A stretch of 64,000 bases of DNA from assembly GCA_035574255.1 (NCBI GenBank), contig DATLYZ010000031.1, forward strand, positions 142,197 to 206,196, given 5' to 3'. The DNA comes from Gemmatimonadales bacterium (GTDB taxonomy: Bacteria > Gemmatimonadota > Gemmatimonadetes > Gemmatimonadales > GWC2-71-9). Below the pieces are notes generated by a model, which saw nothing but the letters and a program-made list of their open reading frames with translations, ran no database searches and was not told where the DNA came from. Below, piece after piece: positions 3,373 to 47,070 of this stretch; the first letter of the stretch is position 1; every line of letters begins with the position of its first letter. A program made the translations under genes and the position numbers.

Positions 3373-3462
3373 GGTAGTAGTATGCGCTACCATCGCCGCA
3401 AGGACAAGAAGGAAACGGTCGCCCGGTACAAGGCCCGAAAAATCGGGCCCGTGTCCCGGCGG

Positions 3463-8854: not shown

Positions 8855-10246
8855 TTACGGCGCGGACCGTCGGACGCGGATCTCGGCCCGGCGGTTGGCG
8901 GTTCGGGCGGCGTCGGTGGTGTCGGCGACCAGGAGGGTCGAGGATCCGAGGCCGGCCGCGGTCACGCGGCTGGCCGCGATGCCGCCGGAAAGGATGTAAT
9001 CGCGGACCGCCTGGGCCCGGCGCTCGGAGAGACGGGTGTTGTCGGCCGGCACCAGCCGGTCGTGGGCATAGCCGAGCACCTCGGCCGTGGCGCCGGGGTC
9101 GGCCCGCATGACGGCGACCACGGAGTCGAGCACCGGCCGGGCGGCGGGGCCCAGGGTGAATCCGCGGTAGGGGAAGGCGGTCCCGGGGACCACGAAGACC
9201 TGCTCGAGAACGGTCGGCTCAGGGGTTGCGGCGGGGCAACCCTCGGCGTCCACCGTCGCTCCCGGCCTAGTGCCGGGGCAGCGATCGAGTCCATCCGGCA
9301 CGCCGTCCGCATCCTCGTCCAGCGGGCAGCCGGCCGGATCCACGCGAGCCCCTACGGGCGTGGCCGGGCAGCGATCGAGCCCATCGAGGATCGCGTCCTG
9401 ATCCGTGTCGAGCGGGCAGCCGTCGGCCTGGACGACCGCGCCCCGGGGGGTGTCCGGGCACCGGTCGAAACCGTCGAGCACGCCGTCCGCATCGGTATCC
9501 GAGGTGCAGCCGACAGGGTCTACGGCCGCGCCTGCGGGGGTGCTCGGGCACCGGTCGAGGCCGTCGGGGACGCCGTCGGCATCCTGATCGGTGGGACAGC
9601 CGCGGCGGTCCACCAGGGCACCGCGCGGGGTGCTGGCGCAGCGGTCCGAGCGGTCGTACACGCCGTCCCCGTCGGAATCCGCCAGTGGCCGGCTCGCCAC
9701 CATGAGGCTGAGGCCGGCCTGGAGCCCCAGGTTGACGAACGGCTCGCCGGCCTGCCGGCTGTAGTTCGCGATCCCCTCGGAGCGGAAGAAGAGCGTGGGC
9801 GTGAGGCCCACCCGTATCCCGAGGCCTCCTTGCGCCGCACTGGTCGAGCCGCAGAGGCCGTACCCCGGAATGGACACGTTGGTGGGGCAGGAGCCTCCGT
9901 AGTCGAGCCAGACGAATCCGCCCTTGAAAAAGAGGCTCGCGTGGTACCCCAGTGCGAGGTTCACGAGTGCGGAGGCGCCCGCCTGGCTGACCTTGAGGGA
10001 GCGATGGAGGCTGGTGTTCGTGTGGGTGGGTACGAGGCTCCCCTCCGCCTCGAGTGAGAGCGGGCCCCAGACCCAGAACCCGGCGCGCAGGGTGGGGCCG
10101 AAGCCCCCCTTGATCTCGCTGGCGGTATCGAAGTAGTGGTATCCGCCCGCAGCGCTCACCTCGAGCCGGTAGAGGCGCTGGCCACAGAGGGCCGAGGCGG
10201 TGAGGGCGCAAGCCGCCGCCAGAGCGGGAAGACCAGGTCGGAGCAC
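8855..10246 (-). CDS. OmpA-family outer-membrane protein with thrombospondin type-3 repeats
   Basis: N-terminal beta-barrel-like region. Five D-x-D-x-D-G-x-x-D..DRC repeats (DSDGDGVYD, DQDADGVPD, DTDADGVLD, DTDQDAILD, DEDADGVPD). OmpA C-terminal domain (..NTRLSERRAQAVRDYL..NRRAEIRV). Confidence 0.85.
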   Translation of the reverse strand: MLRPGLPALAAACALTASALCGQRLYRLEVSAAGGYHYFDTASEIKGGFGPTLRAGFWVWGPLSLEAEGSLVPTHTNTSLHRSLKVSQAGASALVNLALGYHASLFFKGGFVWLDYGGSCPTNVSIPGYGLCGSTSAAQGGLGIRVGLTPTLFFRSEGIANYSRQAGEPFVNLGLQAGLSLMVASRPLADSDGDGVYDRSDRCASTPRGALVDRRGCPTDQDADGVPDGLDRCPSTPAGAAVDPVGCTSDTDADGVLDGFDRCPDTPRGAVVQADGCPLDTDQDAILDGLDRCPATPVGARVDPAGCPLDEDADGVPDGLDRCPGTRPGATVDAEGCPAATPEPTVLEQVFVVPGTAFPYRGFTLGPAARPVLDSVVAVMRADPGATAEVLGYAHDRLVPADNTRLSERRAQAVRDYILSGGIAASRVTAAGLGSSTLLVADTTDAARTANRRAEIRVRRSAP

Positions 10247-33818: not shown

Positions 33819-34790
33819 CTACGTCTCCGGATAGAGCGACCGGCCCAGCACCTCGACATTGACCGCGCCGGCCTGATAGGTCTTCCCGGAGCTGGCCGAG
33901 GTGAGCCATACCGCGGCCGGGCTGAAGAGGAGGGGGTCGATCCGGTAGAAATCTTTCTCGTACCGTTCGAAAATCTCGTAGAACGGGGTGCCGTAGTCCC
34001 GGGACGAGGAGGAGGGGACCTGGGGCGCCAGGGCGGCGAGTTCGGCGTCGCTGGCCCGCACCAGGAAATGGGCCTGGCCGCCGTAGAGGATGCAATCGTT
34101 GGTGCGCCCGATGGCGCGGGTGTCGTTCCGGGCGGGCGGTGGGACCGGCGCCCAGCCGATGCCGCCGGCGACCCGTCTCACGTCGAAGCCCAGGGTCTCC
34201 ATCTTGTGGAGCGCCGTTTCCAGGATCCGGGCGGCGATCTGGGTGCCGCCCGCGAGGCTCGCCGTGGGGGCCACCACGAACGTCAGCTTGTCCGGCGCAA
34301 GGCCCGCCTTGGCGGCCACGTACTCCGCCACGGCCGGGGTCGGCAACTGGCGGGTTTCCAGCACCAGGACCCCCCGGGGCGCCTGCTCCGCGTAGCCGAG
34401 CTTTTCGTACAGCTCCTTTTCCACCCGCACGTGGGCCCGGAGGGGACCGGATCCCATGGCGAAGTACCGTTCGACCTGGATCGCCCACCCGGCGTACTGC
34501 GAGGCCATGCAGGCGACCGCGGGATGGTCGGTGCGCACCACGACGCCGGGGAAGTTCCGGCCCTCGAGCGCCACGGCGCCGTACTCCACCCGGCCCAGCC
34601 CCCCCATGCAGATCTCGCCCAGCAGGCGGCCCGCCTCGTACCCTCCCTCGACCTCGATTCCTGCGTCGATCACGCGCGCGCCGTTCGGCAGCCGGTGCAC
34701 CGCGACGCGGAGCAGGGCGGCGTCCTCGCACATCCGATCGGCGAGGGACCACGCGCGCTCGTTGAGCGCCAGGCCGGCGACAGGGTTCAT
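33819..34790 (-). CDS. mch: Methenyl-H4MPT cyclohydrolase
   Basis: Full-length match to my recollection of Mch (..VIDAGIEV.GG.EAG....ICMGGLG.. and ..ACMASQYAGW..). Confidence 0.9.
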   Translation of the reverse strand: MNPVAGLALNERAWSLADRMCEDAALLRVAVHRLPNGARVIDAGIEVEGGYEAGRLLGEICMGGLGRVEYGAVALEGRNFPGVVVRTDHPAVACMASQYAGWAIQVERYFAMGSGPLRAHVRVEKELYEKLGYAEQAPRGVLVLETRQLPTPAVAEYVAAKAGLAPDKLTFVVAPTASLAGGTQIAARILETALHKMETLGFDVRRVAGGIGWAPVPPPARNDTRAIGRTNDCILYGGQAHFLVRASDAELAALAPQVPSSSSRDYGTPFYEIFERYEKDFYRIDPLLFSPAAVWLTSASSGKTYQAGAVNVEVLGRSLYPET

Positions 34791-34826
34791 GCGGGCTCCT
34801 CGTTCAGCCGGCAGGCGGCGACCGCC

Positions 34827-35729
34827 TCACCGTCCTCCGTCGGCCAGAATCTTCCGCAAGTGGAAGTGATGCGGTCCCAGCTTGCCGCCGTAGTTGCCGG
34901 CCGTGATCACCCGGACCTGCGGCCGGCACGCGGCCAGCATCCCCACCCGCATGGCGCCTTCCACGGCCGCCGCATCGAGCCCGTTGATCACGATCTCCAG
35001 CACCGAGTTCACCTGGTCCGGCAGGGCGGTCTCGGTGACACGGCGGAGCGTGGGGCAGAACGCGTCGTTGGTGGAGGCGATCATCTTCTTGGATCGCCGG
35101 GAACCGACCTTGCTCCCGCTGCGCACGATGCCGCCGGGGAAAGGAAGGATGATCCCGGGCCGGCCGCTCATCGCCTCGACGGCGGCCTCCGCGGCCTCGA
35201 GGGCCGCCTCGGCGCTCTCGGCGAGGATCAGGAAGTTGCCCCCCCCGACCGCCCTCTGCATCCCGAACTTCTCCTGGACCAGGAACTCGCCTTCCATGAC
35301 CGGGATGCGCCAGTATCGCTCGCCCCCGATGACCTTGCTCGCCTGGAACCCGTCGCCGAAATGGCGGAGCACCGAGCCCACCGGGATCCGGTCGGGAGCC
35401 TGGGGGAGCCCGTCGTAGCAGGCCGTCGTGGGGCAGGTGAGCACGGTCTGCCCGATCCGCTCGACCAGCCGGGCCGGGAGGTCCTCCTTTCCCATGGTCA
35501 TGAGGAGCACGTGCACGCCGGGCCGGCCGTCCGGTGTCTCCTCCGGCCCGACCTCGCGTTCGATCCCCGCCTCGCACTTGCAGCCGATCACCGAGGTGGC
35601 AAAGCCGGTCAGCTTGAGCGCCGCCTCCCGGGCCCAGCGCGCGGTTCGGGCCGTGATCACCACCCGGGCCGCCCGCATGGTGAAGGCTTCGGCGAAGGTA
35701 TCCTCGATCAGGACGTCGCGGATGCGCAC
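34827..35729 (-). CDS. fhcD: Formylmethanofuran:H4MPT N-formyltransferase (Ftr/FhcD), copy 1
   Basis: ..IEDTFAEAF.M.A.R..ITA...WA..AA...TGFATSVIGC.CEAGIE.. and ..GGGNFLILAES... GTG start 2 nt after the fhcC stop. Confidence 0.9.
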   Translation of the reverse strand: MRIRDVLIEDTFAEAFTMRAARVVITARTARWAREAALKLTGFATSVIGCKCEAGIEREVGPEETPDGRPGVHVLLMTMGKEDLPARLVERIGQTVLTCPTTACYDGLPQAPDRIPVGSVLRHFGDGFQASKVIGGERYWRIPVMEGEFLVQEKFGMQRAVGGGNFLILAESAEAALEAAEAAVEAMSGRPGIILPFPGGIVRSGSKVGSRRSKKMIASTNDAFCPTLRRVTETALPDQVNSVLEIVINGLDAAAVEGAMRVGMLAACRPQVRVITAGNYGGKLGPHHFHLRKILADGGR

Positions 35730-35731
35730 GG

Positions 35732-36547
35732 TCAGCTCAGCACCAGGATTTCGCCCCGGCCGTCGTTCGCCAGGTCCCCCACGTACCGCCGGGCCCGGAC
35801 CCGGGTGTCGGGAACGTGGGCGAACCGGCCCGGCAGGTTGCGCCAGGAGCGGGCGAGCAGCGTGAGGAAACCGAGCCGGTGCTCGCCGCAATCGTTGAAC
35901 GTGGGGACCCACTCCGCCGGGGGCCGTTCCAGGATCAGCGTCCCCCGGCGCATCGCCAGGCCGGCGAAGGCGCCGACCCGGCCCGCCACGGCGATGGTCC
36001 CGGCGAGCATCCGGGCGGCGCAGTAGTCGCCGGCGTTGCCCTCGATCAGCACCGTCCCGCGCCGCATGCGGTCGCCCGCGCGGTCGCCCGCGTTCCCCCC
36101 GATCACGATGGTGCCTCCCTGCATCCCGCGCGGGTCGCCGGGAATCGCCGCGGCCAGGAAATCGCCCGCATGGCCGGTCACGTGCAGCAGGCCGCCCCGC
36201 ATTCCGGTTCCCGCGTAGGGCCCGACATTGCCGTGCACCTGGATCTGCCCGCCGCGCATCCCTGCCCCCACGTACGCGCCGGCGTCGCCATGGACCACGA
36301 GGCGGCCGTGACTCATCCCCTCGCCGATCCGGTCCAGCTTGTCGCACGCGTTCCGGATTTCGAGTTCGGCGGCGAAGCTGCCCGCGATATCGAACAGCGC
36401 GTCCACTCGCACCCGCCGGTTGCCGCACTGCAGCTCGATCGCCGCCACCTGGGCGGGGGACTTCCCGGCCAGGCGGTCAATGGAAAGCGGCGCAAGATCG
36501 ACCCGCTGGGAGGGTCGCTCCCGGAGCGTGAGGCTCAGCATGCCCAT
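35732..36547 (-). CDS. fhcC: Formyl-MFR dehydrogenase subunit C-like beta-helix protein (FhcC), copy adjacent to ftr1
   Basis: Repeated G-x-G-x-x-x-G turns (..VHGDAGAYVGAGMRGGQIQVHGNVGPYAGTGMRGGLLHVTGHAGDF..). Confidence 0.85.
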   Translation of the reverse strand: MGMLSLTLRERPSQRVDLAPLSIDRLAGKSPAQVAAIELQCGNRRVRVDALFDIAGSFAAELEIRNACDKLDRIGEGMSHGRLVVHGDAGAYVGAGMRGGQIQVHGNVGPYAGTGMRGGLLHVTGHAGDFLAAAIPGDPRGMQGGTIVIGGNAGDRAGDRMRRGTVLIEGNAGDYCAARMLAGTIAVAGRVGAFAGLAMRRGTLILERPPAEWVPTFNDCGEHRLGFLTLLARSWRNLPGRFAHVPDTRVRARRYVGDLANDGRGEILVLS

Positions 36548-36624
36548 GGCTGGAGTTCCCGACCTGACCGCGCGCGACTAGGGACCCTCGCCACCGCGCT
36601 GCCGGGTGCGAGGCATCGTGGTAC

Positions 36625-37458
36625 TCAGGCCGCCCGCCGGGTGGCCGGCCCGGAGTCGAGGAGGAGAATCTCCCCTCGATTGAGTTCCACGGCGTCGCCG
36701 GACCAGCGCTGATAGCGCCCGGTCATCTGCTCGTCCGTGACCGGGAGCCCCAGGCGGCGGAGGTGGGGAAGATACAGGCGCAGGAAGACCGGCCGGTAGG
36801 TGCAGGCGTAGGCGAAGGTGGGGAGCAGTTCCGCCGGTTCCATCGAGACGATGGTCCCGCGCTTCATCCCGGCGCCGGTGCGCCAACCCAGCCGCCCCAG
36901 CACCACGACGGTGCCGGCCAGCATGTTGACGCCGGTGAAGTCGCCGGCGTCGCGGCCCACGGCCACGACGCCCCGCCGCATCCCGCTCCCCGCCTCGTTG
37001 CCCACACTCCCCAGGACCACGATCTCGCCGCCCCGCATGCCGACGGCGCTCCCCCGGGGCGCGCTGCCCACCATGTGGCCGGCGTTGCCCCGGATCACGA
37101 TCCGCCCGCCGGTCATCTCCGGCCCCACCCAGTCGCCGGCGTCGCCTTCCACGATGATCTCCCCGCCGCTCATCCCGGCTCCCAGGTGCATCCCCACCGG
37201 TCCGTGGATCACGATCCGCCCCTCGGTCATCCCGGCGCCCACCCGCTTCACCCGCGAGAGATCGCCCTCGAGGTGGATCTCGCCATTGGCGGTGCCGGAA
37301 ACCCGGAAGAATTCGCCCAGTTCCGCGGCCTGGTTGCCGTGGACCACCGGGCGCCGGGCCACCTGGTCCGGCGAGAGGCCCGCGAGTCGCGCCGGGCACA
37401 GCGTCTCTGCCTCCAGCGGCACGGCGGGCGGCGTGTGCAGCGTGATCGCGAGGCTCAT
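36625..37458 (-). CDS. fwdC: Formyl-MFR dehydrogenase subunit C, copy adjacent to fwdA
   Basis: The same beta-helix repeats (..IHGPVGMHLGAGMSGGEIIVEGDAGDWVGPEMTGGRIVIRGNAGH..). ATGA overlap with fwdA. Confidence 0.85.
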   Translation of the reverse strand: MSLAITLHTPPAVPLEAETLCPARLAGLSPDQVARRPVVHGNQAAELGEFFRVSGTANGEIHLEGDLSRVKRVGAGMTEGRIVIHGPVGMHLGAGMSGGEIIVEGDAGDWVGPEMTGGRIVIRGNAGHMVGSAPRGSAVGMRGGEIVVLGSVGNEAGSGMRRGVVAVGRDAGDFTGVNMLAGTVVVLGRLGWRTGAGMKRGTIVSMEPAELLPTFAYACTYRPVFLRLYLPHLRRLGLPVTDEQMTGRYQRWSGDAVELNRGEILLLDSGPATRRAA

Positions 37459-39116
37459 GGGGCCGCGGCCGGAGTGCTGGGGACGACGCGGGCGTGAGGG
37501 ACGTAGCGGTCGGCCACGGGGTAGTTGGCGAACCGGATGGTGTAATACTCCTCGAAGAACGGCTCGATCACCCGCTCGATGCCGGGATCGTACCCCGGGG
37601 CCACGTGATAGACCTGGCCCTCGACGTCCGCCCGGAATTCGTGGTCTTCGATGACGAGCTCGCCGCCCTTGATCACGTACCGCGGCGCCGAGAACATCTT
37701 CTCCTTGTCCGGGTCGTCCTCGTAGATCGTGACATCCGCGTCCGCGCCGGCGCCGAGGTGCCCCTTGTCCGTGAGGCCGAGGATGCGGGCCGGCCCGGCG
37801 CGGGTGATGATGGCGATCTCGTACAGGGAGTATTCCCGCTCCTGGCAGTCGCGGAGCCCGCTCCGTTCCAGGGCCCGCTGATTGATCCGGCTCATCTGCT
37901 CCTTCCGGTATTCCCGGTCCATGAGGAGGCGGATGAGCCGCGGGTAGGTCATGAAGGAGCCGCCGTTCGGGTGGTCGGTGGAGAAGACCATCCGCCAGGG
38001 ATCTTCCGACAGGAGGAAGAGCTCCAGCCCGATCGCCCACTGGAGGGCGTTGGTGTACACCCGGTCCTGATAGGTGAACGGGACGATCCCGCAGCCGCTC
38101 TCCATCTCGGTGTCGGCGTTCACCCATTTCGCCCCGCCGAACTGGCGGAGCAGGTAGGCGAGCGGGGCGTCGGCGGTCATGCTGGTCGAGCGCCCGAACA
38201 TCACGGCACCCACGTCGGCCGTGATGTTCGGATGGGTGTTGACGAACTCCGCGATGTCCCGCGCCCTCGAGGTCGGGTTGTCGCGGCTCTTGCCCGCCAC
38301 CGACCCGTAGCTGTGGAACTGGATGTGGGTGATATGGGCCCGGCGGCCCTCGGCGAGCCGCATGGTCTCGAGCGTGGTCTCGTAGTTGCCCGTGTGCCCG
38401 AGGTTGTTGCAGTGAATGTGCACGGGGTGGGGGAGCCCCAGCGCGTTCGCGGCCTCGATGAAGGCGGCGATCACCCGCCGCGGGGTGAGGTCGAAGGGGC
38501 CGATCTTCTCGTCGAGCCGGGTGATGTTGGCGTTGCGCTGCCCCTTCCAGAGCTCATCGGCGCCCGGGTTGACCAGCTTCGGGGCGTAGGCCTTGGTGGC
38601 GCTGAGCCACCAGGCCAGGGCGTGCCGGAACTCCTCGGTCCGGCCCGCCTCGAGCAGCCGGTAGAGGAGCACGTTGTTCCCCACCAGCACGAAAAACCCC
38701 TTGTCGATGACCGGGGTGTCGTGCAGCTCCTCGAGCGTGTGCCGCGCCCCGAGCGGCGTGACCGCCGCTTCCATGGCGGTGGTGTACCCCAGGGCGGCGT
38801 AGCGGTAGCCGGTGGCGAAGGTGGAGGGGACGGTGCCGCCGGTGCCGGAGCGGGTGATCCGGGTCCGGGGGTGCACGTCCAGCCGGTGGTCTTCGGGCTG
38901 GACCTTGCGCGCGAGGTTCACCTTGGGGCCGGCGATGTGGCAATGGATATCCACGCCGCCCGGCATCACGACCATGCCCCGGGCGTCGATCTGGCGCGCC
39001 TCGGGCGGGACCTCCGCGACGATCTTCCCGTCGCGGATGCACACGTCGCGCACCGCGCCGTCAATGCCGTTGGCCGGGTCGTACACCCGCCCGTTGGTGA
39101 TCCGGAGCATCCCCAT
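37455..39116 (-). CDS. fwdA: Formyl-MFR dehydrogenase subunit A (amidohydrolase), copy 1
   Basis: ..ITNGRVYDP.NGIDG...D..I.DGKI.. and the metal-binding ..GGVDIHCHIAGPKVN... The start at Met11 has GAGGGA 4 nt upstream; 39146 (GTG) is also possible. Confidence 0.88.
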   Translation of the reverse strand: MGMLRITNGRVYDPANGIDGAVRDVCIRDGKIVAEVPPEARQIDARGMVVMPGGVDIHCHIAGPKVNLARKVQPEDHRLDVHPRTRITRSGTGGTVPSTFATGYRYAALGYTTAMEAAVTPLGARHTLEELHDTPVIDKGFFVLVGNNVLLYRLLEAGRTEEFRHALAWWLSATKAYAPKLVNPGADELWKGQRNANITRLDEKIGPFDLTPRRVIAAFIEAANALGLPHPVHIHCNNLGHTGNYETTLETMRLAEGRRAHITHIQFHSYGSVAGKSRDNPTSRARDIAEFVNTHPNITADVGAVMFGRSTSMTADAPLAYLLRQFGGAKWVNADTEMESGCGIVPFTYQDRVYTNALQWAIGLELFLLSEDPWRMVFSTDHPNGGSFMTYPRLIRLLMDREYRKEQMSRINQRALERSGLRDCQEREYSLYEIAIITRAGPARILGLTDKGHLGAGADADVTIYEDDPDKEKMFSAPRYVIKGGELVIEDHEFRADVEGQVYHVAPGYDPGIERVIEPFFEEYYTIRFANYPVADRYVPHARVVPSTPAAAP

Positions 39117-39178
39117 CGTTCCCTCGCTCCCGTCGCTCCCCCCCACCCCGGCCTGCCGAGGCCGGCTGCCGGCCCGCG

Positions 39179-40507
39179 CTACGCCGCCGGCGGGATCCGG
39201 TTGCCGCCCAGGAGGGACCGGACCCGGTCACGGATCGCCGTGAGCACCTGCTCGTCGCTCGGATACGGCGACTCGAAGGCCGGGCGCAGGGTGATGGGCA
39301 CGTCGTCCATGCGGTAGACGGTCCCCGCCACGTTGATCCCGTAGGTGGCGGTGGTGAAGGCCACCCGGGCCAGCTGGCTGGTCAGGGTCGCCTTGGGATC
39401 GAGCGTGATCACCGGAATCCGCTTCAGGTGCTCGATCGCTGCCTTGGGGAAGTTCGAGGCGGGGTCGCTCGCGATGACGAGGGCCGCGTCGGCCTCGCCG
39501 CGGACCAGGAGGTCCACCGTGGTGAACTCGCCGGGGTTGAAGCGGGGGAAGCCCCGACTGAAGTTCACCCCGAAGGGGAAGCCGGTCTGCCAGGACACCA
39601 CGTTGTCGGCGCCCGTCACGTTCCCGTGGCCCCGCACCGGCTTGGCCACGAAGTGGGTGAACTGGTTGAGGTCGGTCGCCAACGCGAGCAGGGCGCCCGA
39701 GTTGAAATGACGGCCCCGGTTCATGGTGAGCCCCATGCCGAAGAGCAGGGCTCCGAAGCGGCACGTCTTCATCCGGTGCGCGAGGTCCTCGAGCACCTCC
39801 AGCTTGACCCCGGTCCGCTGCTCCACCGACGGATCCACCGGCCGGCCCTTCACCAGCGCCCGGAGTGCCCACAGCACCTCGAAGTCCGAGCGCGGCTTCA
39901 CCTGGATGAAGATGTCCGCCACCGGGGTGCTCAGCGTGCGCCGCACGTCCACCAGCACCACGGTGCGGTCCTTCTTCCCGTTCGGGACGTACATGCCCTT
40001 GGGCGTCACCGCGTAGCGCGTGAACAGGCGCGGGTGTGCCTCCGCCGGGTTGCCGCCCCAGAACACGATGAGATCCGCCCGGTTCTTGATCTCGCCCAGC
40101 GTCGCGGTGCTCTCGCCCACGCCCTGGAAGGCGATGCCCGACGGGCCATGACAGACCGAGGTGGTGGTATCCACGGTGCCCCCGATCATGTCGGCGATGG
40201 CGACCGCCACCCGCTGCGCCTCGCAGGTGGTGTCGGACAGCCCGTAGACCACCGGGTAGCGCGCCTCGGCGAGGATCCGGGCCGCCTCCTCCACGGCTTC
40301 CTCGGTGGTCGCCTCCCGGCCCCCGATCAGGGCGAAGGGCCGGTCTTCGTGGCTGTGCTCCTTGAACCAGGCCTTGCCCAGGATGCAGGCGTTCTCCGCC
40401 TTCGTGATGCGCTTGTGCTCCAGGTCCACCGTGAGGACCATGTCGTCGCAGACGCACCCGCAGAACGTGCAGGTCGCGTCGGGCACCACCCGGACGTTCT
40501 CGCTCAT
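39179..40507 (-). CDS. fwdB: Formyl-MFR dehydrogenase subunit B, Mo/W-pterin type (Cys-His ligand motif retained)
   Basis: N-terminal CTFCGCVCDD, ..YGLSDTTCEAQ.., and ..TTSVCHGPSG.. (Cys119-His120). GGGGAGGA Shine-Dalgarno before the ATG at 40507. Confidence 0.88.
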   Translation of the reverse strand: MSENVRVVPDATCTFCGCVCDDMVLTVDLEHKRITKAENACILGKAWFKEHSHEDRPFALIGGREATTEEAVEEAARILAEARYPVVYGLSDTTCEAQRVAVAIADMIGGTVDTTTSVCHGPSGIAFQGVGESTATLGEIKNRADLIVFWGGNPAEAHPRLFTRYAVTPKGMYVPNGKKDRTVVLVDVRRTLSTPVADIFIQVKPRSDFEVLWALRALVKGRPVDPSVEQRTGVKLEVLEDLAHRMKTCRFGALLFGMGLTMNRGRHFNSGALLALATDLNQFTHFVAKPVRGHGNVTGADNVVSWQTGFPFGVNFSRGFPRFNPGEFTTVDLLVRGEADAALVIASDPASNFPKAAIEHLKRIPVITLDPKATLTSQLARVAFTTATYGINVAGTVYRMDDVPITLRPAFESPYPSDEQVLTAIRDRVRSLLGGNRIPPAA

Positions 40508-40511
40508 CGCG

Positions 40512-40775
40512 CTATCCTCCCCGGGTCTCCGCCTCCGTCTCGGCGACGGGCTCGACCTGGACATCGAGATTCTTCGAGATCGGCATCCCGCTCGCGGCCG
40601 TGTCGCCCGCCATGAGCTGGCTGGAGACCGGCCCGTAGGTCATGAACAGGATGCCGGGCGGGAGGTCCTTGGACTCCCGGCCCTTGCAGCGGACAATCAC
40701 TTCCCCCACGGCGGACCGGAGCCGCACCTTGCTGTTGTTGGTGAGGCCGAGGCGAGCCATGTCCTCGACGTTCAT
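40512..40775 (-). CDS. fwdD: Formyl-MFR dehydrogenase subunit D (molybdopterin-dinucleotide-binding barrel); ATG-defined part only
   Basis: MNVEDMARLGL..VRLRS..GEV.V.......LPPGILFM.YGP......(T)..SGMP..K...V.VEP. Homology continues upstream to about 40860 with no start codon (see findings). Confidence 0.7.
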   Translation of the reverse strand: MNVEDMARLGLTNNSKVRLRSAVGEVIVRCKGRESKDLPPGILFMTYGPVSSQLMAGDTAASGMPISKNLDVQVEPVAETEAETRGG

Positions 40776-40886
40776 CTCGACCGTCGAGCAGAGGTCGAGG
40801 TACTCCGGGCCGAGCTTCCCGGCGCAGAGCGCGGTGCCCTGTTTGTTCGAGCGCCCGCCGCCCTCCGCCTTCCTAGTATAGCGTCG

Positions 40887-42281
40887 CTACTCGGCGGAGG
40901 AAGAGGGGCCGTCGAGCAATCTCAGCATCTCCACGGTCCGGGTGAACTTCTCCCGCGGTTTTCCCCTGGGGGCGCCCCGAGCGACCTCGGCCTGGTCAAT
41001 GACCAGCCAGTCGTCGTAGCTCACCACCCGGAGCCGGTCCCGCCGGAGGGCCTCGAGCCCCTCCGCGCCGGGCTTCGGCCGGGGGTCGAGCGAGGGCAGA
41101 TCGGCCAAGAGCGAGGTCACCGTGGCCACGCTGTCCGCCCGGTTGGTTCCGATGATACCCGTGGGGCCCCGCTTGATCCAGCCGGAAGCATAGAGCCCCG
41201 GGATCACCTTGCCGCCCGAATCCACGATCCGCCCATCCCGGGTCGGGAAGACGCCCTGCTTGGCGTCGAAGGGGACCCCGGGAATCGCCACGCCCTTGTA
41301 CCCGATGCTCCTGAAAAGGAGCCCGCACGGCTGTTCGATCCGCTCCCCCGTTCCTACGGCCGACTGGTGAAAGGGCGGCCCTTCGAGCCGGTTGCGCTCC
41401 AGCACCACGGATTCCAGGCGGGCCCGGCCTCGGAGCTCCACGGGGCTCAGCAGGAATCGGATGAACACCCGCCGCCGGACGTTCCGCGGACTCCGGGCGG
41501 CGAACCCCTGGAGGATCTCGAGGTTCTTCTTCGCGACCGCGCCGGCGCGCTCGGTGAGTTCGGCCTCGCTGGCGGGGTTGAGCACGAGGTCGGCGGGGTC
41601 CACGATCGGATCGCAGTCGACCAGCTCCCCCAGCTCCCGGAATTCCTTGTTGGTGAACTTGGCCTGGGCCGGGCCGCGCCGGCCGATGAGGTGGATCTCG
41701 CGGATCCGGCTCTGCGCCAGCGATTCGAGCGCGTGCTCGGCGATATCGGTGTGCCGGAGCTCGTCCACCGTCTTGGCCAGGATGCGGCAGACATCGATCG
41801 CCACGTTGCCCTGCCCGATGATCACCGCGATCTCCTGGGACAGGTCGAACCTGCGGTCGCGGTAGTCGGGATGGCCGTTGTACCAGCCGACGAATTCCGT
41901 GGCGGTGTGGCTCCCGGGGAGGTCCTCGCCGGGAATGCCGAGGCGGCGGTCGCTCTCGGCGCCGGAGCAGAAGATCACGGCGTGATACGCCGCCTGGAGC
42001 TCGGCCACGCTCACGTCCCGCCCCACGGCGACGTTGCCGAAGAGCCGGAAGCCGGGGGTGCGGGCGATGGTGTCATAGACCCGGATCGGCTCCTTGAGCT
42101 TGGGGTGGTCCGGGGCCACCCCGTAGCGGACCAGGCCGAAAGGAGCCGGGAGCCGCTCGAACATGTCCACCTGCACCCTGCGGCCCGAGCGGAACAGGGC
42201 CTCCGCCGCGTAGAAGCCGCTGGGCCCGGAGCCCACGATGGCCACCCGGAGCGGGTTCTCTCCCGTGCCGAGCTCGTTCAC
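40887..42281 (-). CDS. FprA/adrenodoxin-reductase-type NADPH:ferredoxin oxidoreductase flavoprotein
   Basis: ..VAIVGSGPSGFYAA.. (FAD GxGxxG), ..FGLVRYGVAPDHP.. (family signature), second Rossmann ..VIIGQGNVAIDV... GTG start with GGAGGTG 6 nt upstream. TAG stop in frame with fwdD. Confidence 0.85.
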   Translation of the reverse strand: MNELGTGENPLRVAIVGSGPSGFYAAEALFRSGRRVQVDMFERLPAPFGLVRYGVAPDHPKLKEPIRVYDTIARTPGFRLFGNVAVGRDVSVAELQAAYHAVIFCSGAESDRRLGIPGEDLPGSHTATEFVGWYNGHPDYRDRRFDLSQEIAVIIGQGNVAIDVCRILAKTVDELRHTDIAEHALESLAQSRIREIHLIGRRGPAQAKFTNKEFRELGELVDCDPIVDPADLVLNPASEAELTERAGAVAKKNLEILQGFAARSPRNVRRRVFIRFLLSPVELRGRARLESVVLERNRLEGPPFHQSAVGTGERIEQPCGLLFRSIGYKGVAIPGVPFDAKQGVFPTRDGRIVDSGGKVIPGLYASGWIKRGPTGIIGTNRADSVATVTSLLADLPSLDPRPKPGAEGLEALRRDRLRVVSYDDWLVIDQAEVARGAPRGKPREKFTRTVEMLRLLDGPSSSAE

Positions 42282-42298
42282 CGAGGCACCTCCACGAT

Positions 42299-43195
42299 TC
42301 AGGCCAGGATCTCGTGCAACCGAAAGTGGTGGCGGCCGAGCTTGCCGCCGTAGTCGCCGGCGCTGATCCGGCGGATCCCGTGCGCGGCACCGAGGCGGAC
42401 CACCGCCTGGATGCCGGCCCGCATGGCGGCCGCCACATCGGCGGCGGTGAGACCGTCAATCACGATCTCCAGCACCGACGCGACCTCGGGGGTGAGCTGG
42501 GTGGCGGTAATGCCCCGCAGCGTGGGACAGAAGGCGTCGTTGGTGGAGGCGCGGAGGGACGTGTATTTGGAGCCGACCTTGGAGCCCGATCGGACGACCC
42601 CGCCGGGAAACGGCAGGATCACGTTGGGGATCTGCCGGATCGCCGCCACCGCACGCTCGCACGCCGCCAGCGCCTGCTCCTGGGACTCCGCCAGCACCAG
42701 GAAGTTGCCGCCCCCCACCCCGTTCGTCATGGCGGTGGTATCCTGGATCAGAAAATCGCCATCCATGACGGGGATCCGCCAGTAGCGGCGCCCGCCGATG
42801 AGCTTGGAGGTCTGGTACCCGTCGCCGAAGAACCGGAGGTACTTGCCGAGCGGGAGCGGGTCGCCCTGCTCGAGGCCGGCGAAGACCGCGCTCGTGGCCG
42901 CCGTGAGGAGGCACTGGCCTACCCGCCGCTCCACCTGCTTGACCAGTTCCTTGGCCGAGACCGCAAAGAGGAGCAGGGCGAGCCCGGGCCGGCCGTCCGG
43001 GGTCTCGGCCGGGTCGAGTTCGCGTTCGATCCCCGCCTCACAGCCGCACCCGATGACCGACGTGGCGAACCCGGTCGCGGCGGTCGCGGCATGATAGGCC
43101 CACTCCAGCGTCTGGGCGGTGACGATGAGGCGCGTCGCCTTCATGTCGAAGGCTTCCGCGAACGCGTCGTCAATGGTGACGCCGTTGAGGTTCAT
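42299..43195 (-). CDS. fhcD: Formylmethanofuran:H4MPT N-formyltransferase (Ftr/FhcD), copy 2
   Basis: MNLNGVTIDDAFAEAFDMKATRLIVTA..TGFATSVIGCGCEAGIE..GGGNFLVLAES.. It is collinear with copy 1 over the full length. Confidence 0.9.
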   Translation of the reverse strand: MNLNGVTIDDAFAEAFDMKATRLIVTAQTLEWAYHAATAATGFATSVIGCGCEAGIERELDPAETPDGRPGLALLLFAVSAKELVKQVERRVGQCLLTAATSAVFAGLEQGDPLPLGKYLRFFGDGYQTSKLIGGRRYWRIPVMDGDFLIQDTTAMTNGVGGGNFLVLAESQEQALAACERAVAAIRQIPNVILPFPGGVVRSGSKVGSKYTSLRASTNDAFCPTLRGITATQLTPEVASVLEIVIDGLTAADVAAAMRAGIQAVVRLGAAHGIRRISAGDYGGKLGRHHFRLHEILA

Positions 43196-44862
43196 GCCAT
43201 TCGGTCCCGGCAGGGGTGGGTCACGACCTCCGCGCCGTGCCCGAACGCCCGCATCTCGTCGTCGCTGATCCGGAAGTTGGCGGCGCGGATCGTATGGAAG
43301 CGCGCGAAGTGATCCGCCACGCGCCGCTCGATCGCCGGGTCGAAGGCGGGGGCCACGGCATGATACCGGCCCCACGTGACCCGGACGATCGCTCCGTCCC
43401 GCACCACCAGCTCGCCGTCCTTGAAGACGAAGAGCGGGGTCCGGAACATCCGCTCCCGGTCCGGGTCGTCCCGGTAGACCGTGATGTCGGCCGCCGCCCC
43501 GGGGCCGAGGTGCCCGCGATCGGCGAGCCCCAGGATCCGGGCCGGCGCCGCCCGGGTGAGGATCGCGATCTCGTAGAGCGTGTACTCGCGTTCGATCGAG
43601 GCGAGCGTCGTCATCCGGCGGGCCTCGGGATGGAGCAGCGCCAGGCGCTCGTTCCGGAAGGTCCGGTCCATCAGGAGCCGGATCAGGTGGGGATAGCTCG
43701 TGAACGGCGCCCCGTTCGGGTGGTCGGTGGTGAGGAAGACGCGCCAGGGATCGTTCACCAGCAGAAAGATCTCGAGCCCGATCGCCCACTGGAGCGCGTT
43801 GACGAAGTTCCGGTCGCGATAGCGGAACGGTACCACCCCGCACCCCGCGTCACACTCGATGTCCATCACCACGAACTTGCGGGGCCGGCCCAGCGGCGCG
43901 TTGCGGTGCTGCGCCATGCTGTCCCCCGAGACGGTCACCGTCTGCCCGAAGAGGACCTGGCCCACGTCGCAGCTCACGTTGGGGAAGCGGTTCACGGCCT
44001 CCGCGATCCGGGCCGCGGCGGAGGAGAACTGGCGATCACCCTCGGTGCCATAGCTGTGGAACTGGATGTGGGTCAGATGGATCGGCAGCCCCTCGGCGGC
44101 ACCCATGGTCGCCAGGGTCGTCTCCGCGTTCCCCGGCACCCCGAGATTGCAGCCGTGGACGTGCAGCGGGTGCGGGAGCCCGAGCTCGTGCACCGCGCGA
44201 GTGAGCGCCCGGAGGACGTCGCGCGGGGTGACTCGGTAATACGGGTGGGGCTCGTCGAGATCGAGGGTCCGCTGGTTGAACTTGAAGGCGGAGATCCCGC
44301 CGGGGTTCACGACCTTGATAGCGAGGCAGCGGGTGGCCTGGAGCATCCAGGCCACGTAATCGTTGATCACCGGCTGCGGTTCCCGAGCGGCGAGCAGCCG
44401 GAGCAGGAAGTCGTCGCTCCCGAGCATCAGGTACCCGCCCTTGTCCACGATCGGCGTGTCGCCCATCTCCAGATGCGCCTGGCGGGCGTTGGACGGTACT
44501 ACCGCCGGCTCGAAACAGGCGGTGTACCCCATCTCCGCGTAGCGATACCCGGTGGCGAGCGTGCCGGGTGCCGCGTGGCCCGCCGAGGCCCGGGTGCGGC
44601 CGGTGCGGGGGACCGGATCGGCCCGGTGATCCTGCGGGAGCAGCGCCCGCGCGATGTTGAGCTTCCCGCCGCCGATGTGGGTGTGCAGGTCGATGGCCCC
44701 AGCCATGACCACCGTGCCTGACAGATTGAACTCCTCGTCGATCCGTTCCTCGGGGCCCGGCGGCGCGATGATCCGGCCGTCGCGCACATAGAGATCGCGC
44801 ACCTCGCCGTCCACGCCGTGCGCCGGATCGTAGACGCGGCCTCCGGTGAGCTTGAGCAGCAT
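43192..44862 (-). CDS. fhcA: Formyltransferase/hydrolase complex subunit A (amidohydrolase), copy 2
   Basis: MLLKLTGGRVYDPAHGVDGEVRDLYVRDGRI.. and ..GAIDLHTHIGGGKLN... ORF-track start trimmed to Met111. Confidence 0.88.
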   Translation of the reverse strand: MLLKLTGGRVYDPAHGVDGEVRDLYVRDGRIIAPPGPEERIDEEFNLSGTVVMAGAIDLHTHIGGGKLNIARALLPQDHRADPVPRTGRTRASAGHAAPGTLATGYRYAEMGYTACFEPAVVPSNARQAHLEMGDTPIVDKGGYLMLGSDDFLLRLLAAREPQPVINDYVAWMLQATRCLAIKVVNPGGISAFKFNQRTLDLDEPHPYYRVTPRDVLRALTRAVHELGLPHPLHVHGCNLGVPGNAETTLATMGAAEGLPIHLTHIQFHSYGTEGDRQFSSAAARIAEAVNRFPNVSCDVGQVLFGQTVTVSGDSMAQHRNAPLGRPRKFVVMDIECDAGCGVVPFRYRDRNFVNALQWAIGLEIFLLVNDPWRVFLTTDHPNGAPFTSYPHLIRLLMDRTFRNERLALLHPEARRMTTLASIEREYTLYEIAILTRAAPARILGLADRGHLGPGAAADITVYRDDPDRERMFRTPLFVFKDGELVVRDGAIVRVTWGRYHAVAPAFDPAIERRVADHFARFHTIRAANFRISDDEMRAFGHGAEVVTHPCRDRMA

Positions 44863-44891
44863 GCGGCGGGTCCGATTCGTGAGAGCCGAGG

Positions 44892-46160
44892 TCAGAGAGC
44901 CCGTTCGATCGCGTCCAGCACCTGGGCCACGCCGGGCAGCGCCGAATCGCGAAGCGAGCGGAGCGGGAGGGCCACCACCCGGTCGGTGCGGAACAGATGC
45001 CCGGCGTGATCCACGCCCGGCGTCCCGACCGGGATGACGACGGCGGGCTCCTCGGCGAAGCGCATGCCCGGCCTCCCCAGCACGATGGCCGGGACCGGGG
45101 CGGCGGGCGGCCCACGCCGCTCGTCGAAGCTCGAGATCCAGACCAGCACATCCGCCTCGCCGCTCGCGAGCAGCCGCTCGGCGGCGAAACACCAGGGGTC
45201 GTACTCCGGATACCCGCGGGCGTACGAGGTCCGCGCCGCGAAACCGGTCTGCCAGAGGTGGACCGCATCCACCGTCACGTCGCCGTCACTGCCGCCCAGC
45301 GGCAGCCCCGCGAAGCGCGTCGTGCGATTCAGGTCCTTGACGAGCTCGCTCAACGCCTGGACGGCCAGATCGGCGTGCGGGAAGTCGAGATCCGCCGCCG
45401 CCCACGCCACGACCCCGTACCGCGCTCGGCGCAGGCGCTGCGCCAGCTCCCGCCAGGTGGCGAGCGGCACCCCCGCCACCGAGCCGACCTCGAGCCGCCG
45501 GCCCGCGACCAGGGCGCGCAAGACCCCCAGCGCCTCGGGCAGCCGGCGCACCTCGCACGGAATCGCGCGGGGGACCAGGCCCGAGACCGCCCCCGCCCCC
45601 TCCGGCGGAGCCGGGCCCAGGAAGACCACCTCCACCGGCTCGGCCGCTTCGAACATTCGCTCCCGCACCAGGCACCGCTCGAGGAACCGCGGAAAACGCC
45701 GGGTCACGTCGCCGATCACGATGAGCAGATCGACCCGGTTGCGGATCTCGGAGAGCGTGGTGGTGATCCACCCGCGATCCTGGAGCGCCAGGGTGTTCCG
45801 AATGGCGGCGGCGGCGTTCATGTGATCCAAGACCCCACCCAGCCGCTCCGCCAGGCGGGCAGCGGCGCGGGCGCCGGCGACATCAGTGCCGAGGCCGGCG
45901 AAGAGCGGCTGGCGTGCCTGGCGCAAGAGCACGGCCGCCTCCTGGACGGCCTGCTCCAGGCTCGCCGCCCGACCCCTGACCCGGGGCTGCTCGAGCTCGG
46001 TTCCGGCCTGATGAGCGAAGGCGGCGGTGCTGATCGAACAACCGTTCGCCTGCACCGCGAGCCGGCCATTCGCCGGGCTCACGACCAGGTCGTCGCAGAG
46101 CAGGCCGCAGAACGGACAGGTGACGTCGCGGGCTTCGGCCGCGAGTGGAGGTGGAGCCAT
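44892..46160 (-). CDS. fhcB: Formyltransferase/hydrolase complex subunit B (FwdB homologue lacking the Cys-His ligand motif)
   Basis: CPFCGLLCDD is retained. Where copy 1 has TTCEAQ and SVCHGPS, this copy reads DVAGAR and AAAAIRN. Confidence 0.85.
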   Translation of the reverse strand: MAPPPLAAEARDVTCPFCGLLCDDLVVSPANGRLAVQANGCSISTAAFAHQAGTELEQPRVRGRAASLEQAVQEAAVLLRQARQPLFAGLGTDVAGARAAARLAERLGGVLDHMNAAAAIRNTLALQDRGWITTTLSEIRNRVDLLIVIGDVTRRFPRFLERCLVRERMFEAAEPVEVVFLGPAPPEGAGAVSGLVPRAIPCEVRRLPEALGVLRALVAGRRLEVGSVAGVPLATWRELAQRLRRARYGVVAWAAADLDFPHADLAVQALSELVKDLNRTTRFAGLPLGGSDGDVTVDAVHLWQTGFAARTSYARGYPEYDPWCFAAERLLASGEADVLVWISSFDERRGPPAAPVPAIVLGRPGMRFAEEPAVVIPVGTPGVDHAGHLFRTDRVVALPLRSLRDSALPGVAQVLDAIERAL

Positions 46161-46290
46161 GAACGCCTGGAAGCAGGACGTAGTAAGATGTACGGATCGT
46201 TCCGCAGTGCAATGGCGCTGTGCGGCGTTGCCCCGATGTCGCTCGCCGCGCGGGCACTCGGCGTCGTACGACGCGCCGGCGGTTGTGCAT

Positions 46291-47070
46291 CACCCCGGCG
46301 AAAGCCGGGGGCCAGGCGGCGCAACGGACCCCCGGGCGCGCGGGCCTGGATTCCCGCGTGCGCGGGAATGACGAGGGGTGGGTGTGTCACCTCGGCGAAA
46401 GCCGGGGTCCAGTCGGCCCACGGGTCCTACTTGTCACCCCGGCGAAAGCCGGGGTCCAGACGGCGCAACGGACCCCCGGGCGCGCGGGCCTGGATCCCCG
46501 CGTGCGCGGGAATGACGAGGGGTGGGTGTGTCACCCCGGCGAAAGCCGGGGTCAAGTCGGCCCACGGGTCCTACTCGTCACCCCGGCGAAAGCCGGGGTC
46601 CAGACGGCGCAACGGACCCCCGGGCACGCGGGCCTGGATTCCCGCGTGCGCGGGAATGACGAGGGGTGGGTGTGTCACCCCGGCGAAAGCCGGGGTCCAG
46701 ACGCCCCACGGGTCCTCCTCGTCACCCCGGCGAAAGCCGGGGTCCAGACGGCGCAACGGACCCCCGGGCGTGCGGGCCTGGATTCCCGCGTGCGCGGGAA
46801 TGACGAGGAGCGCGCGTCGCCTGGCGAAAGCCGGGGTCCAGTCGGCGCAACGGACCCCCGGGCGCGCGGGCCTGGATCCCCGCGTGCGCGGGAATGACGA
46901 GGGGCGCGCGTCGCCTGGTGGAAGCCGGGGTCCAGACGCCCCACGGGTCCTCCTCGTCACCCCGGCGAAAGCCAGGGTCCAGGCGGCGCAACGGACCCCC
47001 GGGCACGCGGGCCTGGATCCCCGCGTGCGCGGGAATGACGAGGGGCGGGTGTGTCACCCCGGGTGAACGG
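46291..47070. repeat. Mosaic tandem array of REP-like hairpin elements (97-nt unit A, 47-nt unit B)
   Basis: 10-11 copies of (T)CACCCCGGCGAAAGCCGGGGTCCAG (7-bp stem, GAAA loop). Unit A adds ..GGCGCAACGGACCCCCGGGCGCGCGGGCCTGGATTCCCGCGTGCGCGGGAATGACGAGG... Order is A B A B A B A A B' A, with an exact 144-nt A+B period from 46434 to 46721. Confidence 0.9.

Follow-up and report, generated by a model that had tools for sequence, protein, structure and literature searches.

Does the TAG in this stretch of Gemmatimonadales DNA interrupt one gene or separate two? Within the 64,000 nucleotides that were analysed (hereafter the window), an fprA-like reading frame on the minus strand ends at a TAG and is followed, in the same frame, by fwdD codons without a start of their own. 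At face value this would be a stop-codon-readthrough fusion tethering an NADPH flavoprotein to formylmethanofuran dehydrogenase; we find instead the scar of an 88-nt deletion or a sequencing artefact at a hairpin. With a probability of roughly 0.9, fprA and fwdD lie side by side as separate genes and their fused look is this scar, be it real or artefactual. The features at the junction are listed below, where L003 denotes a contig nearly identical to the window and P0001 the intact FwdD protein of such relatives.

40887..42281, minus strand: fprA-like gene, 464 aa, with a GTG start at 42281 and a TAG stop at 40889-40887 (from translation; gene calls in relatives give the same 464 aa).
40861..40886, minus strand: what is left, at its 5' end, of the spacer between fprA and fwdD, CGACGCTATACTAGGAAGGCGGAGGG, identical to L003 9910-9935.
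40855..40860, minus strand: deletion junction with the sole remaining CGGCGG copy (relatives have two copies, 88 nt apart).
40512..40859, minus strand: fwdD remnant, codons 9-123 of 123 and the stop (tblastn of P0001 residues 9-123 gives 40859-40515 with 100% identity).
40773..40775, minus strand: first in-frame ATG, Met37 of intact FwdD and start of an 87-aa ORF (from reading the sequence).

Translation of window:40509-42281(-) confirmed the pattern to which the initial annotation had drawn attention, namely an fprA ORF, its TAG, a start-less run of 37 codons and an in-frame FwdD ORF; the C-terminal end of FprA runs into the fwdD frame as ...GPSSSAE*RRYTRKAEGGGRSNKQGTALCAGKLGPEYLDLCSTVEMNVEDM... 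The 37 in-frame codons from the fprA TAG to the ATG at 40775, as read from the sequence, are in their first half CGA CGC TAT ACT AGG AAG GCG GAG GGC GGC GGG CGC TCG AAC AAA CAG GGC ACC and in their second half GCG CTC TGC GCC GGG AAG CTC GGC CCG GAG TAC CTC GAC CTC TGC TCG ACG GTC GAG, with no ATG, GTG, TTG, CTG or ATH among them. Both other frames around the junction run into stops, with no hidden start or frameshift. The chance of fprA and fwdD sharing one frame is 1 in 3.

The 464-aa fprA product is, as judged from its sequence, an NADPH-ferredoxin reductase of the FprA/adrenodoxin-reductase family. Its homology to Mycobacterium tuberculosis FprA (1LQT, 399 bits; residues 10-455 onto 3-453, end to end) and to mitochondrial adrenodoxin reductase (1CJC, 376 bits) is full-length, and the FAD motif GSGPSG and the segment GVAPDHP both align to 1LQT. 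Unlike these two counterparts, the window gene sits in a methanofuran/H4MPT C1 island and has no adjacent ferredoxin gene in the window's lineage.

Beyond the TAG, homology to FwdD had been expected to begin upstream of the first ATG, and it does so, 27 codons before 40775; neither the FwdD model nor the PF01568 alignment begins at or after Met 40775. The NCBIfam FwdD model NF042908 aligns to the post-TAG translation from its residue 11 (the last G of GGGRSNKQG), at profile position 8, with a score of 65.5 bits, whereas the 87-aa ORF that starts at the ATG reaches 50.5 bits; that 65.5 bits fall short of the equivalog cut-off (175) is what one would expect of a bacterial relative. The PF01568 alignment starts four codons ahead of Met 40775 (41.3 bits, cut-off 26.8), and the window sequence matches the family of FwdD and molybdopterin-dinucleotide-binding domain IV. 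According to PMC6926001, FwdD is the fourth domain; it forms a cap over the tungstopterin site and is involved in coordinating the cofactor. In the best 120 homologues it is 114-146 aa long, and the aligned ones begin M-x-x-x-M-T-L-I-G-G-R; 22 homologues show no variation at M5, L7, I8, G9, G10 and R11, and the alignment of P0001 with solved FwdD chains begins at residue 5 (E 9e-16 to 1e-9). All aligned homologues have both a start of their own and the complete M-T-L-I-G-G-R strand, neither of which is present in the window fwdD.

An intact 123-aa fwdD (MAEIMTLIGGRSNKQG...) with its own ATG is present on contigs that share 99.5-100% identity with the window. The 123-aa product, P0001, is coded on five contigs from five data sets; from GGRSNKQG on, it has 100% identity to the window translation. 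A further contig, L097, has the same intact fwdD 5' end and ATG in its DNA. In L003, the nearest relative whose contig spans the junction, the intact fwdD begins 91 nt past the fprA stop in a frame that differs from that of fprA: the TAG lies at 9907-9909 and the ATG at 10001, with CGGCGG copies at 9936-9941 and 10024-10029 (from the alignment and the L003 sequence). To either side of the gap, window and L003 share 99.5-99.8% identity; the identity to L007 is 100%. The L003 BLAST blocks break off at window position 40852 and resume at 40860, and another contig, L001, departs from the window sequence at 40852.

Compared with these relatives, the window and one Logan contig (L002) miss 88 nt between the two CGGCGG repeats, comprising most of a GC-only hairpin, the remaining spacer, the fwdD ATG and codons 1-8 (MAEIMTLI), and the ribosome-binding region is absent from the remnant as well. 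The missing start codon is due to this deletion and not to design. What is left of the spacer is non-coding in relatives, and the window frame reads it as RRYTRKAEG. A long GC-only stem, GGCGGCCGGCC-GCG-GGCCGGCCGCC, with flanking pairs, forms when the intact spacer is folded; the fold z-score of the 131-nt piece (-1.25) is unremarkable because the whole region is GC-rich, and a scan of the intact spacer for an intrinsic terminator or promoter gave nothing relevant, the hairpin having no T tract. As in slipped-strand (microhomology) deletions at hairpins and in polymerase-jump artefacts, a 6-nt direct repeat bounds the gap with one copy kept, and on its left the gap starts where a very stable GC hairpin is entered. 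We infer slippage between the repeats. The first CGGCGG lies in the 5' arm of a ~19-bp all-G+C hairpin just past the fprA stop and the second at fwdD codons 8-10; loss of the 88 nt between the copies stripped off the bulk of the hairpin and everything up to and including the conserved first beta-strand, MTLI, and the remaining fwdD codons fell into the fprA frame by accident, giving an apparent fusion.

The initial annotation had proposed that the TAG is read through or suppressed, giving an FprA-FwdD fusion that tethers the NADPH/FAD reductase to the Fwd complex. Its sole support is the shared frame of the two ORFs and the absence of a start between them, a state made by the strain-specific 88-nt deletion; in near-identical loci the fwdD ATG lies upstream of the GR..QG segment and, in L003, out of frame with fprA. 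The would-be linker is the non-coding spacer of the relatives, and the fusion would still be without the conserved first FwdD strand. We surveyed frame, stop and start in 34 loci where fprA lies upstream of fwdD: the relative frame of the two genes is under no constraint (17/12/5), the spacers span -16 to 196 nt, fwdD has its own start (ATG, GTG or TTG) in 34/34, and so has fprA its stop, the type of which is not conserved (TGA 20, TAG 10, TAA 4). A tblastn comparison of relatives had been suggested as a way to find uninterrupted fusions or a sense codon at the TAG; there were none, no FprA-FwdD fusion ORF occurs in the 92 loci examined, and no FwdD homologue longer than 146 aa is among the best 120. 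One locus, L035, taken as a stop-less fusion, was rejected, a TGA being present past which the tblastn alignment had run. The 64-kb window holds no tRNA gene of any kind, suppressor or Pyl tRNAs included. By sequence, the locus is not a case of programmed readthrough or translational fusion, and we hold a functional tether to be as good as refuted. A natural fusion gene broken by a nonsense mutation or an assembly error, which had also been considered, falls as regards the fusion, the orthologues being separate genes, and survives as regards the error, with the 88-nt deletion as its cause.

Truncation of FwdD at its N-terminus likewise stands, caused by the deletion between the CGGCGG repeats, but it is very improbable that the 87-aa protein from Met 40775 is a normal, working subunit. 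Such an ORF does exist, exceeds the PF01568 threshold by itself (35.8 bits) and was annotated by the gene caller on L002. Against it, the protein would be 36 residues short, 15 invariant positions among them, and would fall below the length of every one of the best 120 homologues; identical strains carry the full gene, and there is no obvious Shine-Dalgarno sequence ahead of 40775 (GACGGTCGAGATG).

That the two genes are separate and the gap a scar leaves its origin to be weighed. The 88 nt could have been lost in vitro, a polymerase stalling at the GC hairpin and resuming at the next CGGCGG during library amplification, or in consensus or polishing; this is a sub-case of the preferred explanation that differs in origin alone, and the genome would then have a normal 123-aa fwdD. 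Several observations speak for it. Six assemblies of the strain break or degenerate within ~65 nt of the hairpin: L001 stops 14 nt into it, L004 shows poly-G/poly-C junk there, and L005, L006, L007 and L097 start 7-63 nt ahead of the fwdD ATG. A gap that starts at the 5' arm of a hairpin and has direct-repeat bounds is also the classic geometry of polymerase jumping, although in vivo replication slippage leaves the same scar, so that geometry cannot discriminate between the two. The rest of the island is intact, with all genes other than fwdD encoding proteins 100% identical to those of L003, and the junction 24-mer had no match in JGI metagenome contigs; the allele has therefore so far been seen in the window and one sequencing run only. 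On the other side, two different assemblies carry the deletion, the second being L002 of run SRR7882662, with 3024 nt at 100% identity to the window, and this run yielded no intact assembled allele. Since a de Bruijn graph cannot cross a 6-nt repeat, deletion-bearing reads must exist, which excludes a pure assembler mis-join. We consider loss in vitro somewhat less probable than an even chance, and the balance between the two origins tips slightly towards the organism.

The setting is a Gemmatimonadota C1 (H4MPT/methanofuran) gene island, in which the following genes surround the junction.

46160-44892, minus strand: fhcB-like, with the Cys-His replaced by Ala-Ala; this and the next two genes form the upstream Fhc-type set (42299..46160).
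44862-43192, minus strand: fhcA-like, upstream Fhc-type set.
43195-42299, minus strand: ftr, upstream copy.
39179..40507, minus strand: fwdB, 442 aa, catalytic subunit of formylmethanofuran dehydrogenase (TIGR03129, 503 bits; cut-off 327.8).
39116-37455, minus strand: fwdA (gene call; Pfam Amidohydro_3 in the identical locus L003).
37458-36625, minus strand: fwdC (gene call; Pfam GXGXG in the identical locus L003).
36547-35732, minus strand: fhcC-like, downstream of fwdC (gene calls and Pfam in L003).
35729-34827, minus strand: ftr, downstream copy (Pfam FTR in L003).
34790-33819, minus strand: mch (Pfam MCH in L003).

FwdB aligns with archaeal FwdB (8RJA_B, 400 bits; 5T5I_B, 360 bits) and keeps the Cys-His (SVCHGPS) and Arg (VRGH), the catalytic residues named in PMC6926001, as well as the N-terminal CxxCxxxC (CTFCGCVCDD); its curated score, its catalytic residues and its [4Fe-4S] cysteine motif mark it by family as a putative catalytic subunit. 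With archaeal FwdABCD(FG) (Methanothermobacter wolfeii 5T5I; also 8RJA and 7BKB) the window shares the FwdB hallmarks, FwdA and FwdC and, in its relatives, a full FwdD. In contrast to the archaeal systems, its host is bacterial (Gemmatimonadota), the cluster lies beside an Fhc-type paralogous set and fprA, and fwdD is without its start and first eight codons; no FwdF/FwdG polyferredoxin genes were found among the ORFs read and the L003 gene calls around the cluster. The fhcB-like, fhcA-like, ftr, fhcC-like, ftr and mch genes match the methylotroph H4MPT module with FhcABCD of Methylorubrum extorquens (6S6Y), and the FhcB-like protein is without the catalytic Cys-His and Arg, as described for FhcB (PMC6926001). 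It still has the N-terminal CxxCxxxC, whereas M. extorquens FhcB is reported to be without it, and Fhc has no FwdD (PMC6926001); the second set of the window, fwdDBAC, differs from Fhc in keeping all dehydrogenase hallmarks and having FwdD.

If the deletion occurred in the organism, fwdD would be a very recent pseudogene yielding at best an 87-aa fragment from Met37, and the Fwd-type dehydrogenase would probably be dead in this strain; the neighbouring Fhc-type hydrolase set would then still handle formyl-methanofuran. If it came from library preparation or assembly, the FwdD of the organism would be of normal length. In annotation, the window fwdD should be marked as disrupted or suspect, and in metabolic reconstruction of this MAG, Fwd activity should be neither counted nor discounted without a check of the reads.

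Separate genes may still be partners in function. Among loci sampled for containing fwdD, 58 species-level ones were informative, and 46 of these have fprA linked to the bacterial fwdDBA(ftr)C cluster, in several phyla and in two different positions; in 35 of 80 related loci, a 7Fe ferredoxin gene stands directly before fprA. This ferredoxin is of the Azotobacter FdI type (102 bits to 1FRK), the class that FprA reduces in mycobacteria. The window has no 7Fe ferredoxin gene (tblastn E > 0.6), the gene that relatives place between the Fwd and FprA functions. Neither the window nor Chloroflexota loci without fprA showed a ferredoxin or other redox partner; in the latter, the inserted genes are MtdA-like, ATP-grasp, PMT_2 and VIT1. 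The idea that the flavoprotein is the electron outlet of Fwd gains support from the conserved synteny and would not need a fusion; gene order suggests a candidate route Fwd -> ferredoxin -> FprA -> NADP+. A literature search for a link between Fwd and FprA or adrenodoxin-reductase-type enzymes, or for accounts of Fwd from Gemmatimonadota or from the upland soil cluster, returned nothing relevant, the matches to 'FprA' being an unrelated methanogen F420H2 oxidase.

Clusters of fwdDBAC that retain every catalytic hallmark are widespread in bacteria and usually linked to the fdx-fprA pair, which makes this pair a testable candidate for the electron acceptor of bacterial Fwd enzymes. We tentatively propose that fdx, fprA and fwd may form a conserved gene module in two arrangements, not a fusion. 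It is possible, though we would not bet on it, that an FprA-type reductase, normally with a 7Fe ferredoxin encoded upstream, serves as dedicated redox partner of a genuine bacterial W/Mo FwdABCD, whose hosts would oxidise formyl-methanofuran straight to CO2 and NADPH. If so, this direct oxidation of formyl-methanofuran to CO2, which would yield NADPH and bypass free formate, would operate in aerobic bacteria of several phyla, namely Gemmatimonadota and Beta-, Gamma- and Alphaproteobacteria, with an upland-soil-cluster-gamma (USCg) MAG among them.

The features at issue lie on the minus strand of the window, where translation gives:

42281 (GTG) to 40889-40887 (TAG), minus strand: fprA reading frame, 464 aa

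Over its full length, the 464-aa product is homologous to M. tuberculosis FprA (399 bits) and to adrenodoxin reductase (376 bits). Past the TAG, the same frame continues as RRYTRKAEGGGRSNKQGTALCAGKLGPEYLDLCSTVE and then from an ATG at 40775 (MNVEDMARLG...) to its end at 40512, and a codon-by-codon reading of the 37 codons from TAG to ATG found no ATG, GTG, TTG, CTG or ATH. The initial annotation, which described one frame with a TAG and 37 start-less codons, was right in every detail as judged by translation. Its claim that FwdD homology begins upstream of the first ATG was also borne out: the NCBIfam FwdD model matched the post-TAG translation from residue 11 on (profile position 8; 65.5 bits, versus 50.5 bits for the ATG-started ORF), and the Pfam PF01568 alignment started four codons ahead of this Met.

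A search with the post-TAG translation retrieved P0001, an intact FwdD protein of 123 aa (N-terminus MAEIMTLIGGRSNKQGTALCAGK...), 100% identical to the window translation from GGRSNKQG to the end. Five contigs, each from a different data set, encode it, and a sixth contig (L097) has the same intact fwdD 5' end and ATG at the DNA level. On either side of the junction, the intact-fwdD contigs share 99.5-100% DNA identity with the window, and the only one of this strain that spans the fprA-fwdD spot, L003, carries:

L003 9907-9909: TAG stop of fprA
L003 10001: ATG start of fwdD, 91 nt past the fprA stop, in a different frame
L003 9936-9941 and again 10024-10029: CGGCGG hexamer

Only one CGGCGG (40860-40855) is present in the window, where precisely the 88 nt between the two L003 copies are missing: the greater part of a hairpin made solely of G and C (core GGCGGCCGGCC-GCG-GGCCGGCCGCC), the remaining spacer, the ATG and codons 1-8 (MAEIMTLI). 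The supposed linker RRYTRKAEG is what is left of the non-coding spacer at its 5' end. Since the 91-nt spacer and the following 24 nt of coding sequence were together shortened by 88 nt, the fwdD remnant stands in frame with fprA by chance. The flagged pattern is no biological fusion or recoding signal but the scar of an 88-nt deletion, or else an artefact, at a GC hairpin; fwdD, an ordinary gene downstream of an equally ordinary fprA, has lost its 5' end there. The hairpin itself (L003 9931-9968; stem of roughly 19 bp, G and C only, GCG loop) lies directly 3' of the fprA stop, and no T tract was found there. Most short-read assemblies of the strain break at this hairpin, which may serve to stabilise the transcript or as an attenuator.

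Readthrough of the TAG and a natural fusion gene, both previously proposed, were assessed in 34 loci where fprA immediately precedes fwdD. All 34 have an fprA stop (TGA 20, TAG 10, TAA 4) and a separate fwdD start (ATG, GTG or TTG) ahead of M-x-L-I-G-G-R; the spacer measures -16 to 196 nt, and the frame relation is distributed 17/12/5 (11/11/5 at species level). None of the 120 best FwdD homologues exceeds 146 aa, and the 64-kb window contains no tRNA gene. Both proposals are therefore rejected as designed features; the initial annotation had itself named a start upstream of GR..QG and differing frames as contrary evidence, and orthologues have both. One candidate for a stop-less fprA-fwdD, L035, was ruled out by a TGA present in its sequence. 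In two betaproteobacterial MAGs (L045 and L046, around 6001-6014), the stop codon of fprA falls 13-16 nt into fwdD in a different frame, an overlap that suggests translational coupling rather than fusion.

We put the probability that the deletion is a real allele of the organism at roughly 55%, which leaves an artefact as a serious contender at a little under even odds. The same junction occurs in a Logan contig (L002, run SRR7882662) with 100% identity to the window over 3024 nt, and reads with the deletion must exist, because a k-mer graph is unable to jump a 6-nt repeat; moreover, the intact allele is not among the contigs assembled from this run. An artefact is favoured by six other assemblies of the strain, all of which fail, by a break or by degenerate sequence, within roughly 65 nt of the hairpin: L001 stops 14 nt inside it, L005, L006, L007 and L097 start 7-63 nt ahead of the fwdD ATG, and L004 has poly-G/poly-C junk there. 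The intact hairpin is clearly a template that is hard to sequence. The geometry, with the left breakpoint at the hairpin entry and a direct repeat at both ends, fits polymerase stalling and re-priming, although in vivo slippage would leave the same scar. The remaining genes of the island are all intact, and the junction was not found in JGI metagenome contigs, which also speaks for an artefact.

It should be mentioned that L004 (GCA_037024555.1, JBAIGL010003475.1) looks chimeric at the hairpin: at 250-430, just upstream of its intact fwdD, it turns into poly-G/poly-C and then into unrelated DNA (a DUF6458-like ORF) where fprA is expected, while fprA of that assembly is on L001, a contig that stops within the hairpin. 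The fwdA of L004 appears disrupted (split tblastn match, 2201-2782 and 2793-3845).

The window (71% G+C; nearest genome records, Gemmatimonadota/Gemmatimonadales MAGs) carries two paralogous formyl-methanofuran enzyme sets side by side, and methanofuran/H4MPT cofactor genes flank the fhc/fprA/fwd/mch run on both sides:

33819-46160, minus strand, in order: fhcB-like, fhcA-like, ftr, fprA, fwdD, fwdB, fwdA, fwdC, fhcC-like, ftr, mch

FwdB (TIGR03129, 503 bits; archaeal FwdB structure, 400 bits) retains the Cys-His (SVCHGPS), Arg (VRGH) and N-terminal CxxCxxxC motif, residues named for M. wolfeii FwdB (PMC6926001), and the fwd set, with all dehydrogenase hallmarks present, looks catalytically competent. 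The upstream FhcB-like paralogue keeps the CxxCxxxC motif but has Ala-Ala for Cys-His and has lost the Arg, which matches the hydrolase-type Fhc complex. Upstream of fhcB, about 4-5 copies of a 144-nt unit (93% matches) form an intergenic tandem array (46290-47047), which gives rise to long spurious ORFs whose translations repeat PRRKPGSRRRNGPPG...; the array differs in length by about two units from that of the near-identical L003, 457 nt in L003 (3676-4132) corresponding to 153 nt in the window (46667-46819).

As the 'fourth domain', FwdD caps the tungstopterin site (PMC6926001). From residue 5 on, its N-terminal stretch can be aligned with solved FwdD structures, and M5, L7, I8, G9, G10 and R11 are invariant in 22 homologues. 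If the deletion is real, the sole possible fwdD product would be an 87-aa fragment from Met37, without 36 residues and with no evident Shine-Dalgarno sequence ahead of Met37, and the Fwd-type enzyme of this strain would probably be inactive; the adjoining Fhc-type set could still release formate, so that the loss would be tolerable.

The suggestion that the flavoprotein serves as electron outlet still stands once the fusion is set aside. Of 80 species-level loci, all containing bacterial fwdD, 46 have an FprA homologue (60-89% identity to that of the window) inside the cluster, either directly upstream of fwdD (27 loci; Gemmatimonadales, Betaproteobacteria, a few Gammaproteobacteria) or downstream of fwdC at a distance of about 350-1000 nt, in most cases near 430 nt (19 loci; Gamma- and Alphaproteobacteria, including a USCg MAG). 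It is missing from 12 of the 80 with both flanks visible; flanks are incomplete in 22. Many proteobacterial MAGs have genuine fwdD/fwdB genes, contrary to the 2016 listing of fwdD as absent from Proteobacteria (Chistoserdova 2016, PMC5020050).

In 35 loci (among L014-L093), the gene directly upstream of fprA encodes a 101-aa Azotobacter FdI-type 7Fe ferredoxin (102 bits to 1FRK; Pfam Fer4 dicluster), for example:

L079 11413-11718: 7Fe ferredoxin gene, 101 aa, directly upstream of fprA
L021 4242-4547: 7Fe ferredoxin gene, 101 aa, directly upstream of fprA

In the window's lineage no ferredoxin gene was found beside fprA, nor anywhere in the 64-kb window, and both fdx and fprA are missing from Chloroflexota loci and one Gemmatimonadales subgroup. 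The fdx-fprA pair accompanies fwdDBA(ftr)C in two arrangements across Gemmatimonadota, Beta-, Gamma- and Alphaproteobacteria, and these two independent gene orders speak for a functional link. Most economically, formyl-methanofuran would be oxidised at FwdBD, with electrons passing via the 7Fe ferredoxin and FprA to NADP+. With potentials of about -530 mV for CO2/formyl-MFR and -320 mV for NADP+/NADPH, such a route would be strongly downhill in the oxidative direction. Our literature search found no paper linking Fwd to FprA. The fusion as originally posed is of low interest, and the part worth following up is the conserved fdx-fprA-fwd module.
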